This document shows positions 33,424 to 60,411 of a stretch of 64,000 nucleotides of DNA, in pieces. The notes beneath the pieces are model-generated. The model was not told where the DNA came from and searched no databases. It saw only the letters and a program-made list of their open reading frames with translations. How positions within the stretch are numbered: position 1 is the stretch's first letter; every line of letters starts with the position of its first letter. The translations under genes and the position numbers were made by a program. The DNA is from an uncultured Mycoplasmatota bacterium (GTDB lineage Bacteria; Bacillota_I; Bacilli_A; RF39; UBA660), in NCBI GenBank assembly GCA_947426265.1, contig CANEDJ010000002.1:367-64366 (forward strand), in the 5' to 3' direction.

Positions 33424-33429
33424 GTTGAA

Positions 33430-34035
33430 TTGTAAATTGAAATGGCACATTATTCTAGTCAATTTCGTTTATTATGAAGGTGGCCCTAAAAAGTCACTAA
33501 AGAGCATATCTGTGAAACTTCTGGTGCTTGCTTCTTACGCCCAGTTTGGGGTGAGTGCTGGGAGGTATGGATGTTTAGGCAACTGTAATGGCATACAGAA
33601 CAATCGACCCACCATCTTGGAGACCTAACCTTGTTATTTCCCTATACACGAAAGTTGATGGAGAAGTGACGACTTAGGATTAAACCTACTATGTGATGAT
33701 AAGTTACGAGTAGTGTAGCTTGTCCTGAGTGAGTATTTGGGGATTATTGAACGGCTTTTATTTGATTGGCCAACCAAATAAAAGAATTGCAATATGAAAC
33801 AATACTTGCAAAAAGGAACTAATAATAAACAGAGTTGTCGAGGAAATCTCCTAGAGTGTCTATTTATATAGGATTGCAGTGCGTACTCAGTGGCAATCAA
33901 GTCATATATTCGGTGACGATATATTTACTTCTATAATGGGGAACCCCTCGTCTGGTAACGGAAGAGTTTGAAGTAAGGGAAATCCTACTTGACCTTAAGA
34001 CGTAAAGTTTACTATATAAATAGCCATTTTTTTGT
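33430..34035 (+). ncRNA. Large (~600 nt) structured ncRNA; candidate OLE-like (ornate large extremophilic) RNA
   Basis: GC content is clearly above the flanks. Six-frame ORFs here are short and on both strands. Own perfect promoter. Immediately upstream of a 4-TM ~21-kDa membrane protein, matching the reported OLE-oapA arrangement in anaerobic/extremophilic Firmicutes. Confidence 0.45.
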
Positions 34036-34055
34036 ATATTTTTAAGAGGTGTATA

Positions 34056-37818: not shown

Positions 37819-37895
37819 GGCGATGTAGCTCAGTTGGCTAGAGCAACTGGTTCATACCCAGTAGGTCGAGAGTTCGAATCTCCCCGTCGCTACCA
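37819..37895 (+). tRNA. tRNA-Met (anticodon CAU; elongator or lysidine-modified Ile2, not initiator)
   Basis: Cloverleaf folds by eye. Acceptor GGCGATG pairs with CGTCGCT (including G-U). Anticodon loop TTCATAC. T-loop TTCGAAT. CCA end encoded. Confidence 0.8.
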
Positions 37896-53365: not shown

Positions 53366-53950
53366 ATGAAAAAGAATGATGCAATGTTATATCGTTTCGC
53401 CAGACCAATAATTACTGGACTATTTAAAACTTTTTTTACGCCAAAAATAGTAGGAAAAGAAAACATTCCAATTTCTGGGAGAATTATTTTAGCAGGAAAT
53501 CATACAAGTAACTTTGATTGTTTGCTTTTAATCAGTTCTACAAAAAGATCTATTCATTTCTTAGCAAAAAAAGAATTATGGACTGGCCCTAAAAAAATTA
53601 TTTTTGGAAATATGGGATTGATTCCTGTTGATCGAAGTAAAAAAGATCATAAGTCTTTAGAGGCAGCAGAGAATTATTTAAAAAGTGAGTGCTTAATTGG
53701 AATTTTCCCAGAAGGTACCACGGAAAAACAAAAAGGAAAAATTCTTCCATTTAAAATGGGAGCTATAAAAATGGCTGTAGATACGAATACCAAAATAGTT
53801 CCATTTGCGATTTCAGGGAATTACTCTTTGTTTTCAAGAAATTTAAAGATTATATTTGGTGATCCAATATCTATTAAGAATAATGACCTAGAAAAAGAAA
53901 AAGAAAGCTTAGAAAAAACGATTCAAAAATTAATGAGAGGTGATTTATAG
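53366..53950 (+). CDS. 1-acyl-sn-glycerol-3-phosphate acyltransferase family (PlsC/LPLAT)
   Basis: HxxxxD motif GNHTSNFDC and FPEGT motif. Confidence 0.8.
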   Translation: MKKNDAMLYRFARPIITGLFKTFFTPKIVGKENIPISGRIILAGNHTSNFDCLLLISSTKRSIHFLAKKELWTGPKKIIFGNMGLIPVDRSKKDHKSLEAAENYLKSECLIGIFPEGTTEKQKGKILPFKMGAIKMAVDTNTKIVPFAISGNYSLFSRNLKIIFGDPISIKNNDLEKEKESLEKTIQKLMRGDL

Positions 53951-55683
53951 TGTCTATATTTGATATCTTTAGACGAAAAAAAGAAATACCAGCTCCTTGG
54001 AGTAAATATTATAAAGAAGAAGACTTAAACATTAAAATTCCAAATATTAGTATGTATGAACAAGTAAAAAGAAGTGGCGCCAAATATCCAAACTATACAG
54101 CTTATGAGTATTTCGGAAGAAAAACGAACTATAAAACATTTTTAAAGGAAATTGATGCAGCGGCAGCAGCTTTCAAAGTCATGGGGATAAAAAAAGGAGA
54201 TATCATAACATTATGTATGCCAAATGTTCCAGAAGTTTTAATTTCCTTATACGGACTTAATAAATTGGGAGCGATTGCCAATATGCTTCATCCTCTTTCG
54301 GCGGAAGAAGAAATCAAAGAGAACTTGCTTTCAACAAAAAGTGAATATTTAGTTATGATTGATATGTTTTATCACAAAATAGAAAAAAACATAGAAGAGA
54401 CAAAAGTAAAAAAAGTTATTTTTGTTTCTGCTAGCGATTCTATGGGCATTTTGATGAAGATTGGCTACAAATTAACACAAGGTAGGAAGTTTTTAAAATA
54501 TCCAAAAAAAGACCAATTCTTAAATTGGAAACAATTTATGAAATTGTCCAAAAAGTCAATCGAGAGAATAGACATGAAATTTGGAAAGGATACTCCAGCA
54601 GTAATTATCCATAGTGGTGGAACAAGTGGCACACCAAAAAATGTTGTTATCCAAAATAGAGCTTTTCTTTTGGCAGCAAAGCAAGAACAAATTTCCTTAA
54701 AAAAATTGAGGCCTGGAGATTGCTGTTTAGCAATTATGCCAAATTTTCATGGTTTTGGTCTCAGTGTATTGATGCATACTCCTTTAGCGCTTGGCTGTTA
54801 TACAATTTTAGTACCCCAATTTAATTCTAAAAAATTTGATATTTTATTTAAAAAAACGAAACCAACTTGTGTTTTAGGAGTACCAACTTTATTTGAAGCT
54901 CTTTCTGAAAACAATAATATAAAACATTTGGATTTGTCATTCTTAAAATATGCAGTGAGTGGAGGAGATCTTTTAAATAGCAATTTAGAAAATAAAATTA
55001 ATGAATATTTCAAAGCACATAACTCTCAGGCTAGAATTACCCAAGGATACGGATTATCTGAAGCTTTAGCTGCTGTATGCTTGGCAGCAGATGACGTTAA
55101 TAAAAGTGGATCAGTTGGAATTCCACTAGCAGGAAATCATGTGAAAATTATTGATCCAGCAACAAGAGAAACACTTCCTTATAACGAAGTGGGAGAAATT
55201 GTAATCCACACGAAAGCACTTATGATGGGGTATTTAAATAATGAGGCAGAAACCAACGAAGCATTACAAGTTCATAAGGATGGGCATGTATGGCTACATA
55301 CAGGAGACCTAGGATATATGGATGAAGACGGATTTGTTTTTTATAAAGGAAGGCAAAAGAGAATGATTATTTCCAGTGGTTATAACGTATTTCCTTCCCA
55401 CATAGAAGAAGTGATAGAAGCACATCCAGCTGTTTTACAATGTACAGTAGTTGGAATACCTCATTCATATAAAGGGGAAGTTCCAAAAGCTTTTATTGTA
55501 TTAAAAGAAGGATTTCATGGACTATTTATCAAATCAGAAATTAAAGAATATTGTAAAAAAAACATGGCTAAATATATGGTTCCAGCTGAATTTGTTTATC
55601 GAAAAAAATTGCCAAAAACGAAACTGGGAAAAGTAGATTTTATAAAATTACAAAGTGATATAGGAGTTGATGATGATGAATAA
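53950..55683 (+). CDS. AMP-dependent synthetase/ligase (acyl-CoA or acyl-ACP synthetase)
   Basis: AMP-binding motif IHSGGTSGTPK and YGLSE/GDLG blocks. Start overlaps the upstream stop. Confidence 0.85.
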   Translation: MSIFDIFRRKKEIPAPWSKYYKEEDLNIKIPNISMYEQVKRSGAKYPNYTAYEYFGRKTNYKTFLKEIDAAAAAFKVMGIKKGDIITLCMPNVPEVLISLYGLNKLGAIANMLHPLSAEEEIKENLLSTKSEYLVMIDMFYHKIEKNIEETKVKKVIFVSASDSMGILMKIGYKLTQGRKFLKYPKKDQFLNWKQFMKLSKKSIERIDMKFGKDTPAVIIHSGGTSGTPKNVVIQNRAFLLAAKQEQISLKKLRPGDCCLAIMPNFHGFGLSVLMHTPLALGCYTILVPQFNSKKFDILFKKTKPTCVLGVPTLFEALSENNNIKHLDLSFLKYAVSGGDLLNSNLENKINEYFKAHNSQARITQGYGLSEALAAVCLAADDVNKSGSVGIPLAGNHVKIIDPATRETLPYNEVGEIVIHTKALMMGYLNNEAETNEALQVHKDGHVWLHTGDLGYMDEDGFVFYKGRQKRMIISSGYNVFPSHIEEVIEAHPAVLQCTVVGIPHSYKGEVPKAFIVLKEGFHGLFIKSEIKEYCKKNMAKYMVPAEFVYRKKLPKTKLGKVDFIKLQSDIGVDDDE

Positions 55684-56269
55684 AAAAGTACCATTTTTAT
55701 ATAAATTTGGAAAAATAATTCTGGGACCTATTTTTAAGTGGTATTATCATCCAACCATTATAGGAGCAGAGAACATTCCTTCTACAGGTTCTATTTTAAT
55801 TGTTGGGAATCACAAACATCTATATGACCAGTGTTTAACGATTATTGCTACTAGAAGAGGAATACACTACATGGCTAAAAAAGAATACTTTGATGATAAA
55901 AAAGTAGCTTGGTTTTTTAAAGGAACAGGATGTATTTCAGTCGATAGAAGTAAAAAAGATGAGCACTCAAAAGAATTGGCTTTATCTGTTTTAAAAGATG
56001 GAGGAGCTGTAGGCTTATTCCCAGAAGGAACTAGAAACAAAACAGAAGAATTTCTTTTGCCATTTAAATTTGGTGCAGTTAGTATGGCGAGTAAAACCGA
56101 CTCTTATTTGGTACCATTTGGAATTACAGGAGATTATGTTTTTAGAAGTAAAAATCTGGTAATTCGATACGGAAAGCCGTTTAAAGTTGGAGAAATGACA
56201 TTAAAAGAAGCCAATCAGTATCTCCATGATGAAGTAGAAGCTTTGATGAAACAAAATTTAAACATGTAA
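55667..56269 (+). CDS. Second PlsC/LPLAT-family acyltransferase
   Basis: GNHKHLYDQC (HxxxxD) and FPEGTRN. Overlaps the ligase gene by 17 nt. Confidence 0.8.
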   Translation: MMMMNKKVPFLYKFGKIILGPIFKWYYHPTIIGAENIPSTGSILIVGNHKHLYDQCLTIIATRRGIHYMAKKEYFDDKKVAWFFKGTGCISVDRSKKDEHSKELALSVLKDGGAVGLFPEGTRNKTEEFLLPFKFGAVSMASKTDSYLVPFGITGDYVFRSKNLVIRYGKPFKVGEMTLKEANQYLHDEVEALMKQNLNM

Positions 56270-56336
56270 AATTTGAAAAGTTTTCTAGTGAACAGAAGAC
56301 TTTTTTGGTATAATAATTAAGAATGGAGGATAAACT

Positions 56337-57740
56337 ATGTCATTAAAAGATAAATTGGGGAGTACTTTAAAGCAGGCAACAAATTATTTAGGAAACGTTA
56401 ACATAAAAGATAAAGTGATTGAAATGAAAGATAAAACAATCGATAAAGTAAAAGGGATTGATAATCCAGATCATTATACTGCACCAGTAGGATTTGAATT
56501 GTTTAAAATCCCAGTAGCAATTAGCACTGCAGAAATTACAAGAACATTAGATAAGGTAGAACCATTTCATTTGAAAGAAAAAGATAAGATCATAGATGCT
56601 TATGTAAGATTGCTATCATTATTAGGACAAGATGAAACAATTATAAACGCCATAACTGCAACAATGAAAAAAACATACTTGATTGTTTGGACGAGCAAAG
56701 ATAGACTTTTGATTGTTCACAAAGAACATTATAAAGTGTTGCCAAGAGAGGAAATGAAGTCTTTCAAAGTGATTGGAACAGGAGCTTTTGGATTAATTTT
56801 TACTTTAAATCAATATCAGTTTACAGGAAACGAAAAATCAAAGGTATATTGTTTTATTCGGTCTTATTGCCATGAGAATACCAATCCATATATATTTACT
56901 CCATATATTTCTATATCAAAAACACTCAATTATTATGAACGCTTTAAATATGGAAAGCTTGCTAAAGAAAATGATGCAATCAATGAAAATAAAGAACTAA
57001 GCATATTGTTTGAACCAACTGAATTTCCACTGGTAAGCATCTATGGAACATTTGTTGATAAAAAATATGTGATAGCACTTTCAACAAATAGAAAAATATA
57101 TTTGATTGATCAAAATGAATATACAGTGGTCCCAATGAACCATATTAAGAAGATTGAACTTATGAATAAAGGTATGTTTAGCTATGAATTCTATATGGAC
57201 AATTATTACTTTACTGGAAGTGGTCCAGAAGCAAGTGTTATCAAATTTATTGAATATATAAATAACCCAGATTGTTACGAAAATGCTAGAAATGAGTTTT
57301 TAAAAGCCAATCAAGTTTTGGTAACTTTCCCATTTGCTAACGCTATATCTTATCAGACTCCAGGAGGAGAAGGACTTGTTGTTAGTGCCTCTGGAAACAG
57401 CTTTTTAGTAAGCCATGGAATGAACCAAATGGAAATGTATTCTAAAAATGATTTTGACCGCTATGAGCTATTAATGGAATTAGGCATTAATAAAGATGAT
57501 ATGTGGAATGTAGAAAATGCGAAACTAGAGGAAAAAAAGACAATAACAAAAGAAGAAGCCATCTATAACTATGATAAAGTAAGAGTGCGAATCTTTATAA
57601 AACATAAATTAGAACATGTAGTAGAAATACCTTTTATTTTAATGAAAAAAGTTGTTTACCATGAAATTGAAGAAACGACAGAAGCAGGAACAGTAGTTAC
57701 TCAAGAATTTTTAGATAAATTAGATCGTTTTAAATATTAG
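56337..57740 (+). CDS. Hypothetical protein (467 aa), possibly tandem bacterial PH-like domains
   Basis: No catalytic motif recognised. First gene of a tightly packed operon behind a TGGTATAAT promoter. Confidence 0.45.
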   Translation: MSLKDKLGSTLKQATNYLGNVNIKDKVIEMKDKTIDKVKGIDNPDHYTAPVGFELFKIPVAISTAEITRTLDKVEPFHLKEKDKIIDAYVRLLSLLGQDETIINAITATMKKTYLIVWTSKDRLLIVHKEHYKVLPREEMKSFKVIGTGAFGLIFTLNQYQFTGNEKSKVYCFIRSYCHENTNPYIFTPYISISKTLNYYERFKYGKLAKENDAINENKELSILFEPTEFPLVSIYGTFVDKKYVIALSTNRKIYLIDQNEYTVVPMNHIKKIELMNKGMFSYEFYMDNYYFTGSGPEASVIKFIEYINNPDCYENARNEFLKANQVLVTFPFANAISYQTPGGEGLVVSASGNSFLVSHGMNQMEMYSKNDFDRYELLMELGINKDDMWNVENAKLEEKKTITKEEAIYNYDKVRVRIFIKHKLEHVVEIPFILMKKVVYHEIEETTEAGTVVTQEFLDKLDRFKY

Positions 57741-57753
57741 AAAGAGGCAAAGA

Positions 57754-58488
57754 ATGACAGTTATATTATTATCACCAGATGGAAAAAAATTTGAGTTAGA
57801 GTGGGAAGACTTATTGGAATGTAGTAAACAAATATGTGAGCAATGGATTTCAGAATCGGAAGAGAATAAAAGAATTTTTGATTCTTATGCATCACAATAT
57901 ACATTGTTTACTCCTTATTATGATTTCCTATTACACCGACTTCGATATATACAAGTAGGATTTCCTTTTTTTGAAAACGCATGTGCAATTCCAAGCTTAC
58001 ATTTTAAGAAAATAATATCTTTGGATGGAGAGGACCCATTAAACTATGATTATTTGAAAAATAGAAAGAATCAATTTTGTTTAGATATTTATACAGGTTC
58101 AGATAAGCAATTAGACTATCAAAAGCCATACAGTGAATATAAAGAAGGATTTTTACTTCCAGATGGTTCTTTAATTTCTATAGACCAATTAGGAAATCAT
58201 AAAAATATTGCCTATGCATATTTGCTTCAAAAAATGATTGAGGATCCTTCTTTGTTGACTGATTATTTGAATTATAAGGACAAAATAGGAGATATCAGAG
58301 AATACTTTTTTTATAGATTGGGCTGTGCTCAAACTTTTGGTTTAGAATGTAGAGTTGCAATTTATGATGTTGCTTTATTAACGTCAATTCAAAGAAAATT
58401 ATTGAATTCTATGGATTTAGATAGTGATTTGCAAAACTCTATTTTAGAAGAATTTCAAAATCCATTTACATCGGAGATAAGGAAGTGA
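57754..58488 (+). CDS. Hypothetical protein (244 aa)
   Basis: ORF with RBS AAGAGGCAAAGA. 4-nt overlap with the next gene. Confidence 0.45.
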   Translation: MTVILLSPDGKKFELEWEDLLECSKQICEQWISESEENKRIFDSYASQYTLFTPYYDFLLHRLRYIQVGFPFFENACAIPSLHFKKIISLDGEDPLNYDYLKNRKNQFCLDIYTGSDKQLDYQKPYSEYKEGFLLPDGSLISIDQLGNHKNIAYAYLLQKMIEDPSLLTDYLNYKDKIGDIREYFFYRLGCAQTFGLECRVAIYDVALLTSIQRKLLNSMDLDSDLQNSILEEFQNPFTSEIRK

Positions 58489-58772
58489 TATGCATGAAAA
58501 TTAATGGTTATAATGTTAATATTGATTCCTTAATGGAGGATTTAAATATTGATCATGATTTTTATATAAAACGGAAAAACGGATTAATGTTAAAAGATTC
58601 ACAAATAAAAATATTAGAGCGTTACCACATTTTTTATCAAAATTACAATAGTCTTTCTTCTTTATTATTTGAAATAGAAGAAGTTTTAAATGAAATGCCA
58701 GAAGCAGAAGAACTTGAAAAAGTATCGGAAGAATTATCAGAGCTTCATTATTATAACGAAACAAATAAATAG
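58485..58772 (+). CDS. Hypothetical small acidic protein (95 aa)
   Basis: ATGA overlap with the upstream gene. Confidence 0.35.
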   Translation: MICMKINGYNVNIDSLMEDLNIDHDFYIKRKNGLMLKDSQIKILERYHIFYQNYNSLSSLLFEIEEVLNEMPEAEELEKVSEELSELHYYNETNK

Positions 58773-58779
58773 GAGTATT

Positions 58780-59523
58780 ATGGAATTATTAGAAAAAATA
58801 GAAATTTTATTATCATATTATAAGAAGGGAATATTAGGAGGAGAATTCATGCCAGAGGATGAAAATCCAAATTTAGAAAAGTCATCTTGTCAAAATTATT
58901 TGTATTTTACACTTCCTATGGCATTAAATTATCAAAGGAATTCTTATACATTATGGGAAAGTGCTAATAAAACATATAATGATGCAGAAACACGTTTTGT
59001 ATTTGATCCTAAAAAAGTAGTGGAATCAAGTTTTGAAAAAGTTCAAGAAGCCCTTACAAAATATAAAGTAGCACTTCAAAAAAATAAACAAACAGAAGTC
59101 TGGATAAGACTTTGTAATACTATTGTGAATGATTTTGATGGAGATGTTAGAAATATCTTTTTGAAATTTCATAACAATGTGAATGAAATCCGAAAGTTTA
59201 TGCAAATAGAAGAAAAGAAAAAATTTCCATATTTATCAGGAACAAAAATTTGTAATTATTGGCTTTATGTAATGAGTCAGTATGCAGATCAAAGGTATGA
59301 AGACCCAGAGAACTTAACAGTTGCTCCAGATACTCATCTATGTAAAGCTACTTACCATTTGGGGCTGATTACAGAAGAGGAGCTAAACTCTAACAATGTT
59401 CAGAAACTGGTTATTGAGAGGTGGAATCAGGCTTTAAAAGGGACCAAATATCACCCAATAGATATTCATACCCCATTATGGCTTTGGAGTCGAAATGGTT
59501 TTAAAAAGATTGAAAAAGAATAA
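58780..59523 (+). CDS. HhH-GPD-superfamily DNA-glycosylase-like protein (no Fe-S cluster)
   Basis: FPYLSGTKICNYWLYV (HhH/GPD-like) then VAPDTHLCKATYHLGLI, which resembles the VDTHVxRVxxRLGL catalytic-Asp block of endonuclease III/Ogg. AGGAG RBS before the ATG at 58780. Confidence 0.4.
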   Translation: MELLEKIEILLSYYKKGILGGEFMPEDENPNLEKSSCQNYLYFTLPMALNYQRNSYTLWESANKTYNDAETRFVFDPKKVVESSFEKVQEALTKYKVALQKNKQTEVWIRLCNTIVNDFDGDVRNIFLKFHNNVNEIRKFMQIEEKKKFPYLSGTKICNYWLYVMSQYADQRYEDPENLTVAPDTHLCKATYHLGLITEEELNSNNVQKLVIERWNQALKGTKYHPIDIHTPLWLWSRNGFKKIEKE

Positions 59524-59540
59524 AAATATTCTTTTTTTTG
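59516..59540 (+). terminator. Rho-independent terminator
   Basis: AAGAATA-AAAA-TATTCTT followed by TTTTTTT. Confidence 0.65.
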
Positions 59541-59616
59541 TTGGCGTTTTACTATTGCTTTTCAATGATTATTCAAGATTCAATTGATTTGTTTTTAAAA
59601 AAATGATAAAAAGTAG

Positions 59617-59645
59617 TTGACAAATTAAAATCTTTTTCATATAAT
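59617..59645 (+). promoter_or_regulatory. Consensus sigma-A promoter (TTGACA-17-TATAAT)
   Basis: Perfect hexamers with 17-nt spacing upstream of the 229-aa hypothetical gene. Confidence 0.6.
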
Positions 59646-59721
59646 GTTATTAACAGAAGGGCCAATCTGTATAAATTTTAATTAAAGATATTAACAAAAA
59701 GATAATAAGAAGGAGATTAAA

Positions 59722-60411
59722 ATGGAAGAAAAAGAAATATGGAAGCTAGTTCAAAATTGGATTTCGATAGAAAAACATAAAGAAGATAAAAACTTTTTAG
59801 AACATATAGCTTCTTTAAATCATCAAAACGAAAGGCTGAAACCTTACAATTTAGAACTGTATTATGGAAAAAGAGATACTAGAAAGAAATCGATATATTT
59901 CATTATTACACCATATTTGATTCAAGTGTATCAAGGAACTATAACAGAAGTGAATGGAAGGCTTAAAATAGAAAGCTGGGAAATGTTAGAGCAAATTTCT
60001 TGTGATTCTATTAGAATGCCAGAAATTATCGGAAGAGGAGAAGTACCTACAGAGCCGTTTGATTTAATAGCGCCATTCGTAAAAGAAGAAGCTTATATTT
60101 TGAATGGACTTAGTAGTGGAAGTTTAAATTATTATCAAGAAAAGGATGAAAATGGTTTATATGGAAGAACATTAGAAACCGAACATTTTATTAAAATAGG
60201 TCCTAGAAAAGAACACAACCAATTAGATGTTCAAATTGAAAGAGCTTGTGTTTCAGATTTTCAGAACATAGAAGAATTAGAATTGTTACAAGATGGAGAA
60301 ACAATTTTGCCAATTTTAAAAAATCAAAGTCAAGGATCCTATTTGATTGCAATAGAAGCAATTAATAAGTTATTAGAAAATAAGGTAGGGAAAGTCTACC
60401 AATTATTATAA
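59722..60411 (+). CDS. Hypothetical protein (229 aa)
   Basis: RBS AAGGAG. No motif recognised. Confidence 0.45.
   Translation: MEEKEIWKLVQNWISIEKHKEDKNFLEHIASLNHQNERLKPYNLELYYGKRDTRKKSIYFIITPYLIQVYQGTITEVNGRLKIESWEMLEQISCDSIRMPEIIGRGEVPTEPFDLIAPFVKEEAYILNGLSSGSLNYYQEKDENGLYGRTLETEHFIKIGPRKEHNQLDVQIERACVSDFQNIEELELLQDGETILPILKNQSQGSYLIAIEAINKLLENKVGKVYQLL

Follow-up and report, generated by a model that had tools for sequence, protein, structure and literature searches.

Near the 3' end of a 64,000-nucleotide stretch of DNA from an uncultured Mycoplasmatota bacterium (assembly GCA_947426265.1, contig CANEDJ010000002.1; hereafter the window), four tightly packed genes, which we call P1, P2, P3 and P4, follow each other on the + strand (Table 1). 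The block had been singled out earlier as an operon of unknown function that ends in a glycosylase-like protein of the HhH (helix-hairpin-helix)-GPD type, and it had been suggested, as a speculation, that the four genes form an anti-phage or DNA-modification-sensing module. Our analysis leads to a different picture, in which the block, 3.2 kb long, probably forms a single transcription unit that we consider likely to have been put together from three evolutionarily independent pieces, and not a conserved four-component system. P4 belongs to a large and uncharacterised bacterial branch of the HhH-GPD superfamily, in which most members stand alone and whose nearest characterised relative is the archaeal glycosylase AGOG.

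The four consecutive open reading frames (ORFs) are packed together as the original prediction had described, with gaps of 13 nt between P1 and P2 and of 7 nt between P3 and P4. The gene lengths were also given correctly, the 95 residues of P3 being obtained only with a GTG start. However, the 4-nt ATGA overlap claimed for P2 and P3 is absent from the window: the overlap reads GTGA and requires this GTG, which the TGA stop codon of P2 (58486-58488) overlaps. An ATG at 58494 lies 5 nt past that stop codon and behind an AGGAAG ribosome-binding site, and we place the start of P3 there because all eight P3 homologues begin with MKI(N/K)G. In two of the homologous loci, L018 and L022, P3 does share an ATGA with the gene before it (homologous loci are given L numbers and individual homologues four-digit P numbers). 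In all four genes, third codon positions diverge 2-20 times more than second positions when compared with the orthologues. We thus regard all four as genuine coding genes, and the alternative of non-coding or spurious ORFs was rejected on this ground. Tight packing is not unusual for this window, where 18 of 55 same-strand junctions measure 15 nt or less and a second run of four tight junctions exists elsewhere. GC content is uniform (0.26-0.33) over 50-64 kb, and a recent horizontal acquisition was rejected on this basis.

A promoter ahead of P1 and a clean terminator after P4 had also been proposed, and both were found. The extended -10 element TGGTATAAT is conserved in four other species, being identical in L003, L022 and L019 and reading TGATATAAT in L024; P1 of these species shares 55-86% identity with P1 of the window. 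Immediately upstream, a hairpin followed by a T-run, whose sequence is kept in the same four loci, is likely to be the intrinsic terminator of the preceding plsC/AMP-ligase/plsC unit. A promoter scan found promoter-like sites to be no commoner than in shuffled sequence. At the other end of the block, the AT-rich hairpin with its U8 run is conserved in L003, L024 and L018, and lies after P4 in the former two and directly after P3 in L018; it appears to be the common terminator of the whole unit. The consensus terminator scan missed this hairpin because it has too few G-C pairs, and the G-C rule of such a scan overlooks the AT-rich terminators of this genome. Searching 56.2-59.8 kb against Rfam at E <= 1 gave no match. 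The whole block is probably co-transcribed.

The four genes differ widely in their distribution. In a collection of 5.8 billion proteins, in which family sizes were counted as homologous clusters, P4 has 3,325 such clusters, most at ~70% identity and from metagenome-assembled genomes (MAGs) labelled "Bacilli", "Tenericutes" or "Clostridia", whereas P1 has 19 (50-100% identity to the window) and P2 four (63-100%). Only one narrow clade has the P1-P3 pair, made up of MAGs from uncultured, low-GC gut Bacilli/"Tenericutes". A scan of one genome per species yielded 17 loci encoding P4 (L001-L017), against which 13 window proteins were run by tblastn. All four genes are present in L001, which is of the same species; L002 and L003, whose P4 is 81-86% identical, have P1-P3-P4 without P2; and the other 14 loci (L004-L017, P4 63-73% identical) have P4 without P1, P2 and P3, as was again the case in extra look-ups of P4 homologues beyond these 17 loci. 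Conversely, the loci found from distant P1 homologues (L018, L019 and L020/L021; P1 50-55% and P3 72-76% identical) have the order plsC-AMP-ligase-plsC-P1-P3 and neither P2 nor P4. In L022/L023, P4 is missing and an O-antigen ligase gene comes after P1-P2-P3; L024 has the complete P1-P2-P3-P4 series. P3 directly follows P1 in every P1-bearing locus, or P2 where P2 exists, and homologues of P2 sit solely between P1 and P3, being present in L001, L024 and L022/L023 and absent from L002, L003 and L018-L021.

The gene order in L018 helps to locate the point at which P4 differs between loci. Downstream of P3, L018 matches the window, with a homologue of the gene that starts at 59722 followed by isochorismatase, NAPRTase and NUDIX genes. 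In the window, L003 and L024, the sequence 3' of P4 can be aligned with that directly 3' of P3 in L018, and this aligned DNA contains the hairpin and T-run, then a perfect TTGACA-17-TATAAT promoter and then a conserved leader. P4 therefore sits exactly between the stop codon of P3 and a pre-existing terminator. We conclude from these comparisons that P1-P3 is the conserved unit and P2 an optional insert, and that P4 is an independent gene that would have joined the unit only in the subclade of the window, or would have been precisely lost elsewhere. The four-gene set thus does not stand as a conserved unit: P4 is alone in 14 distant loci, P1-P3 occurs without P4 in L018-L022 and P2 is optional. 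Window proteins compared by BLAST with each other and with the methyltransferase partners of P4 homologues (see later) revealed no hidden paralogy, and the idea that the 59722 gene might be a remnant of a fused methyltransferase domain was rejected.

P4 was modelled with AlphaFold2 (AF2) from 46 homologues at a mean predicted local distance difference test (pLDDT) score of 89.3. The model is all-helical, with 15 helices and no beta strands, and has the two lobes and central helix-hairpin-helix of the HhH-GPD fold. In a Foldseek search of the Protein Data Bank (PDB), all leading matches were HhH-fold N-glycosylases (probability 1.00), the best ones being Qng1/DUF2419 structures (E ~1e-3, TMq 0.60-0.62), followed by MjOgg, EndoIII, MIG, MUTYH/MutY, MagIII, Mag1/2 and OGG1. 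At the sequence level, the Pfam AGOG model aligned with residues 78-238 of P4 (profile positions 74-231 of 248; E 0.0037, 17.1 bits), and PF00730 gave no match with P4 of the window and 21.7 bits, against a cut-off of 26.2, with the homologue in L015. P4 alone and a profile of its close homologues gave chance-level matches to PDB sequences; only a profile of 34 diverse members of the family reached AGOG, matching Pae-AGOG (1xqo) with an E value of 5.3e-6. Moreover, 20 of these 34 members were matched by the Pfam AGOG model at E < 0.01 (best E 5.8e-9). A HMMER search with the P4 family profile returned 609 clusters at the 50% identity level.

The residues expected of a glycosylase are conserved in P4. 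Asp184 is invariant in the 46 close and the 34 diverse homologues, and Lys156, within the motif FPYLSGTK, is invariant in the 46 close homologues and conserved in at least 90% of the family. Trp234 is a conserved residue as well. The diverse-profile alignment pairs D172, W222 and D218 of AGOG with Asp184, Trp234 and His230 of P4. The AGOG alignment spans only residues 166-227, and the pairing of K140 with Lys156, which stands at the expected position in the hairpin, was taken from motif position. The Schiff-base nucleophile of AGOG is K140, while its D172 is indispensable and its W222 stacks against the base (PMC9638937); the corresponding Qng1 residues, K199 and D231, hold the ribose in position and attack C1' (PMC9881137). 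An HhH-GPD-like core with the Asp-containing block PDTHLCKATYHLGLI (P4 residues 183-197) and no iron-sulphur (Fe-S) cluster, as originally proposed, is borne out by the model, the Foldseek matches, the conservation and the C-terminus, which ends in LWLWSRNGFKKIEKE and has no Cys cluster. With both the catalytic Lys and the catalytic Asp conserved, P4 does not have the look of a structural HhH protein without catalytic function, and it most likely acts as an N-glycosylase.

The P4 family falls into two halves. In the half that contains P4, proteins end in LWLWSR(N/G)GF, have no Cys loop and are near neutral (median isoelectric point, pI, ~6.9; P4 6.55). The distant half (P0199-P0292) has a C-terminal C-x7-9-C-x5-C-x5-C loop and is basic, with a median core pI of 8.97; a weak alignment of the diverse profile with the [4Fe-4S] loop of EndoIII was also obtained. 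In the distant half, an AGOG-like core is joined to a cluster loop of the EndoIII kind, a combination of which we know no previous description.

The surroundings of P4 homologues vary, with housekeeping genes of several kinds, and none of them is a defence island. Several homologues are fused to enzymes of nucleotide or nucleic acid metabolism or lie next to genes for them (Table 1), AAA_28 being also among the neighbours. In five species, P4 is part of a continuous ORF of ~460 aa with a C-terminal class I S-adenosylmethionine (SAM) methyltransferase domain of the TehB/Methyltransf_25-like kind; a separate methyltransferase gene lies 8-10 nt upstream of P4 in L005 and L031-33. On a 47.6-kb contig classed as viral, the sole IMG/VR contig with P4 (L025 2225-6828, IMG/VR UViG_3300029543_000099), a P4 homologue with 55% identity overlaps an upstream guanylate-kinase-methyltransferase fusion and a downstream peptidase-U32-like gene, and nearby are genes for a GP88-family phage protein, a ParE toxin and the S subunit of a type I restriction-modification (R-M) system. 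These genes could be a nucleotide- or DNA-modification cassette.

Table 1. Features of the P1-P4 block in the window, and fusions and neighbours of P4 homologues in other loci
Feature	Position or locus	Strand	Description
P1	56337-57740	+	467 aa; lineage-specific core gene
P2	57754-58488	+	244 aa; orphan, optional between P1 and P3
P3 (ATG start)	58494-58772	+	92 aa; conserved partner of P1
P3, alternative GTG start	58485-58772	+	95 aa
P4	58780-59523	+	247 aa; AGOG-like, HhH-GPD superfamily
Hairpin and T-run 3' of plsC	56275..56306	+	fold -10.4 kcal/mol
Extended -10 element TGGTATAAT ahead of P1	56306..56314	+	direct sequence reading
GGAGG ribosome-binding site of P1	56325-56329	+	
AT-rich hairpin and U8, overlapping the P4 stop codon	59512..59539	+	-8.9 kcal/mol, z = -1.75
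Promoter and leader of the 59722 gene	window 59600-59721; L003 6830-6928; L024 3820-3927; L018 8860-8971		
Fusion of P4 homologue: class I SAM methyltransferase	L004 5992-7365; L006 1526-2980; L007 5977-7365; L010 4663-6045; L014 5989-7365		
Fusion: Q_salvage/Qng1 (PF10343)	L015 3081-4766; P0144		E 6e-41 and 1e-44
Fusion: Ham1 ITPase	P0152		
Fusion: DUF6884 (YaaA-like)	P0267; P0207		
Neighbour of P4 homologue: HD phosphohydrolases	L009; L014; L026-28		
Neighbour: Nudt16-like NUDIX, PHP, TrmB	L026-28		
Neighbour: UDG	L011		
Neighbour: ASCH	L013		
Neighbour: RNase_T/DnaQ-like exonuclease	L029		
Neighbour: His-phosphatase	L007		
Neighbour: adenylosuccinate-synthetase-like gene and methyltransferase	L005; L031-33		

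The first three proteins had been described as having no recognisable catalytic motifs, and scans of Pfam, NCBIfam and PADLOC indeed gave nothing credible. P1 had further been suspected of consisting of repeated PH-like beta-sandwich domains, and this is supported by its AF2 model (mean pLDDT 83.4, predicted template modelling score 0.73), in which a seven-strand beta-sandwich capped by a C-terminal helix appears three times, at about residues 102-177, 231-309 and 337-466 according to DSSP, behind a flexible helical segment of low confidence (residues 1-40). Foldseek matched this model to PH domains that occur in tandem in Rtt106 and Pob3/FACT, to PH-GRAM and Lam6 domains and to viral proteins that bear the names "Bacterial PH domain protein" and "Short C-terminal domain" (SHOCT). 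The matches are weak yet consistent (E 1e-4 to 1e-2, whole-chain TM-score <= 0.2), and the fold match transfers no function. P1 matched no Pfam model, including those of bacterial PH (bPH) domains, at E < 0.01, and no membrane segment was predicted in it. The low-confidence helical N-terminus is made up of a Lys/Asp-rich 'KDKT-x-D' repeat, which in the homologue P0131 (L018 7001-8488) is expanded by 22 residues at about residues 28-50.

P2 and P3 are both acidic (pI 4.8 and 4.6). P3 is better conserved than P1, with 72-93% identity across eight loci and an invariant HYY-x-ET motif at the C-terminus. No match to P2 was found by tblastn in 50,697 phage genomes, a search of Joint Genome Institute (JGI) metagenomes with the P3 alignment gave 353 pattern matches and no relatives, and profiles of P1, P2 and P3 produced chance-level matches only against PDB sequences. 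We propose, with low confidence, that P1 and P3 form a non-enzymatic adaptor or scaffold pair or complex.

Several observations weigh against the picture of independent pieces and of an AGOG-related P4. The P3-P4 adjacency, with a gap of 7-8 nt, is kept in L001, L002, L003 and L024, and a local functional link of P4 to P1-P3 is therefore possible. The P1-bearing genomes are fairly close relatives (their AMP-ligases are 75-92% identical), so that the synteny of P1-P3 with plsC may reflect shared ancestry. P4 itself scores below the Pfam gathering cut-offs for AGOG (17.1 versus 26.1 bits) and for HhH-GPD. Moreover, the residues with which AGOG reads 8-oxoguanine (8-oxoG) are replaced (D218 by His230 and, by motif spacing, K147 by Tyr163), which makes an AGOG-like specificity unlikely. 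Finally, roles given to P2 and P3 are guesses, because these proteins have no remote homologue and no structural model.

If P1-P4 nevertheless formed one system, P1, P2 and P3 would do the sensing or targeting, and P4 would cut modified bases out of invading DNA. Tight spacing on a single strand between one promoter and one terminator, the adjacency of P3 and P4 in the subclade and the P4 homologue close to ParE and R-M genes in L025 would all fit such an anti-phage or modification-sensing module. However, tight spacing is common in this genome, 14 of 17 genome loci and every extra look-up show P4 without the other three genes, P1-P3 lacks P4 in four lineages, and P2 is optional. Also, P4 is ~70% identical over many MAG lineages, unlike the fast-evolving and patchy genes of defence systems. 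A PADLOC scan of five proteins, as well as PHROGs and NCBIfam scans of P1-P4, gave no meaningful match; the composition is uniform; and P1-P3 sits in housekeeping synteny between the plsC/AMP-ligase/plsC trio and a cluster of NAD-salvage genes, and not in a defence island. With its orthologues scattered in this way, the one-system reading is close to refuted by distribution, and we consider it very improbable. Another way to give P1-P3 (with or without P2) a function is to tie it to the plsC trio, as a peripheral membrane adaptor whose PH-like domains would bind lipid. All nine independent loci keep the order plsC-AMP-ligase-plsC-P1-P3, the gap between plsC and P1 is just 11 nt in L020, and P1 has an amphipathic-looking, Lys-rich N-terminus besides its PH-like folds. 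Against this, the conserved terminator-like hairpin and the promoter of P1 separate it from plsC in most species, L018 has a 472-aa gene in between, synteny is weak evidence among genomes of such close kin and P1 has no predicted membrane segment; a link to lipid metabolism is thus unlikely, though less so than a four-gene defence system.

What P4 acts on is a separate matter. It may be a bifunctional DNA glycosylase/apurinic-apyrimidinic (AP) lyase that replaces Nth/Ogg-type repair of damaged purines and lies behind an unrelated gene pair, a reading to which we give somewhat less than an even chance. EndoIII enzymes have the motifs GxK..N and DTH, to which the hairpin G-T-K156-I-C-N and the Asp block P-D184-T-H of P4 correspond. 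The diverse family profile matches AGOG significantly, distant members are basic and have a four-Cys loop that aligns weakly with the [4Fe-4S] loop of EndoIII, P4 is a stand-alone single-copy gene conserved at ~70%, and UDG and DnaQ-like exonuclease genes are its neighbours in some lineages. However, the pI of P4 is near neutral, the Fe-S loop has been lost in its clade, the 8-oxoG-reading residues of AGOG are replaced and enzymes of nucleotide metabolism dominate among fusions and neighbours. A second idea, which we hold only tentatively, is that the Fe-S-less clade of P4 is a nucleotide-level N-glycosidase that frees a modified or non-canonical purine from a nucleoside monophosphate (NMP), in parallel to Qng1. 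Genome-reduced gut Bacilli might use such an activity for salvage or for sanitation of the nucleotide pool, in many cases with a SAM methyltransferase as partner. Qng1/DUF2419 proteins are the best structural matches; P4-family domains are fused to Q_salvage (L015, P0144), to Ham1 (P0152) and, in five loci, to a methyltransferase, which is found just upstream in L005 and L031-33 and as an overlapping guanylate-kinase-methyltransferase in L025. HD phosphohydrolases, Nudt16-like NUDIX, PHP, His-phosphatase, AAA_28 and adenylosuccinate-synthetase-like genes are neighbours, the four-Cys loop is missing and the core is near neutral (median pI ~6.9 versus 8.97). On the other hand, the all-helical model of P4 has no counterpart of the inserted beta-hairpins by which Qng1 closes its DNA cleft (PMC9881137), hhalign found no sequence relation to the Q_salvage domain, and P4 has kept both the HhH hairpin and the Lys of Schiff-base type. 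In addition, some neighbours act on nucleic acids (UDG, RNase_T/DnaQ-like exonuclease), and with neighbourhoods so variable the nucleotide theme is merely suggestive. Extending this idea, the Fe-S-less clade, with >3,000 clusters in uncultured gut Bacilli and no Pfam model, may be a new enzyme family whose target changed from DNA to free modified nucleotides; it would then be another branch of the HhH-GPD DNA glycosylases, independent of Qng1 but similar to it. It might, on an equally tentative footing, release a base of a non-guanine type, because His replaces D218, the guanine-reading residue of AGOG, and act alongside a SAM methyltransferase, an NMP kinase or an ITPase to salvage or sanitise modified purine nucleotides in gut bacteria with reduced genomes. 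The same replacement argues against specificity for 8-oxoG or queuine.

Returning to the preferred picture of an assembled transcription unit, we propose the following scheme. The core pair P1-P3 has a terminator and a conserved extended -10 promoter to itself, with P3 translationally coupled to whichever gene comes before it, and P2 is a clade-specific orphan inserted between the two in some species only. P4, placed ahead of the pre-existing terminator in the subclade of the window, would borrow the promoter of P1. In P4, Asp184 would promote cleavage of the glycosidic bond, Lys156 in the HhH hairpin would serve as Schiff-base nucleophile or as ribose positioner, and an excised purine-like base would stack between Tyr160 and Trp234; the substrate may be a damaged DNA base, as for AGOG, or a free modified nucleotide, as for Qng1. 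As a candidate for multi-gene defence or modification sensing, then, the locus does not hold up. It leads instead to a very large, strongly conserved and unannotated HhH-GPD branch in uncultured gut Bacilli, for which the recurrent fusions to Qng1, Ham1 and methyltransferases make nucleotide-level release versus AGOG-like repair a testable hypothesis. P1-P3 is a clade-restricted pair that offers no functional lead, although the fold of P1, with its three PH-like domains of the bacterial type, is clear.

Some observations concern the surroundings of the block. Upstream, at 53366-56269 of the window, two PlsC-type acyltransferase paralogues with 41% mutual identity flank the AMP-binding ligase, their start and stop codons overlapping, and this trio is kept in every P1-bearing locus, including L003 and L018-L022. 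In L018, the 472-aa gene between plsC and P1 (5496-6914) encodes a prepilin-type N_methyl motif, and in several of the loci L018-L020 the trio is preceded by sigma-70 paralogues, two or three in tandem. Downstream, the perfect TTGACA-17-TATAAT promoter (59617-59645) precedes the 59722 gene and the NAD-salvage cluster of isochorismatase, NAPRTase and NUDIX genes. This promoter and its leader are nearly invariant in four species, in which the protein of the first gene is just 28-44% identical. Directly after the -10 element, the leader has an inverted repeat, ACAGA-N9-TCTGT, which looks like a repressor operator, and the leader (59600-59721) matched nothing in Rfam. Elsewhere, the window contains a full-length ornate large extremophilic (OLE) RNA (RF01071) at 33426-34043 on the + strand (398.9 bits, E 1e-113) and tRNA genes at 37819, 46308 and 50179.

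To the anti-phage glycosylase systems in PADLOC-DB v2, the locus is similar in having a glycosylase beside unknown genes and in nothing more; it has no meaningful PADLOC match, is not in a defence island and its four genes are not co-conserved. P1 resembles bPH and SHOCT-bPH proteins, Rtt106 and Pob3/FACT in its tandem units of a beta-sandwich with a C-terminal helix, but differs from them in having three copies and a helical N-terminus, no transmembrane segment and no Pfam match. P4 shares with EndoIII and MutY the motifs G-x-K-x-x-N and D-T-H and structural similarity (2abk, 1orn and MutY at TMq 0.5-0.58), and the Cys loop of its distant relatives aligns weakly with the cluster loop of EndoIII; however, the clade of P4 ends in LWLWSRNGF with no Cys loop, Lys and Asp are 28 and not 18 residues apart, and the sequence similarity is non-significant (E 0.026-1.4). 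With AGOG (PF09171, Pae-AGOG 1XQO), the likeness comprises an HhH-GPD fold with no Fe-S cluster, the hairpin Lys (K140/K156, paired by motif position), the Asp (D172/D184), the Trp (W222/W234), an aromatic residue four positions past the Lys (F144/Y160) and a long Lys-Asp spacing (32 in AGOG, 28 in P4), and Pfam AGOG is the sole recurrent Pfam match of the family. P4 differs in being bacterial, in its near-neutral pI and in relatives that are fused or adjacent to methyltransferase, Qng1 and Ham1; Q31, which with W222 and K147 belongs to the 8-oxoG recognition residues of the Pae enzyme (PMC9638937), is not alignable in P4, and AGOG is absent from the top 50 Foldseek matches. Qng1 (DUF2419, PF10343), the queuosine-5'-monophosphate N-glycosylase, is distant in sequence (hhalign probability 0.3%; no PF10343 match for P4), and P4 is ~75 residues shorter, its model having neither the cleft-closing beta-hairpins nor the C-terminal tail of Qng1 (PMC9881137). 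However, Qng1 provides the best structural match to P4 (7u1o and related structures), uses the same Lys/Asp pair (K199/D231; PMC9881137) and is itself fused to P4-family domains in L015 and P0144.

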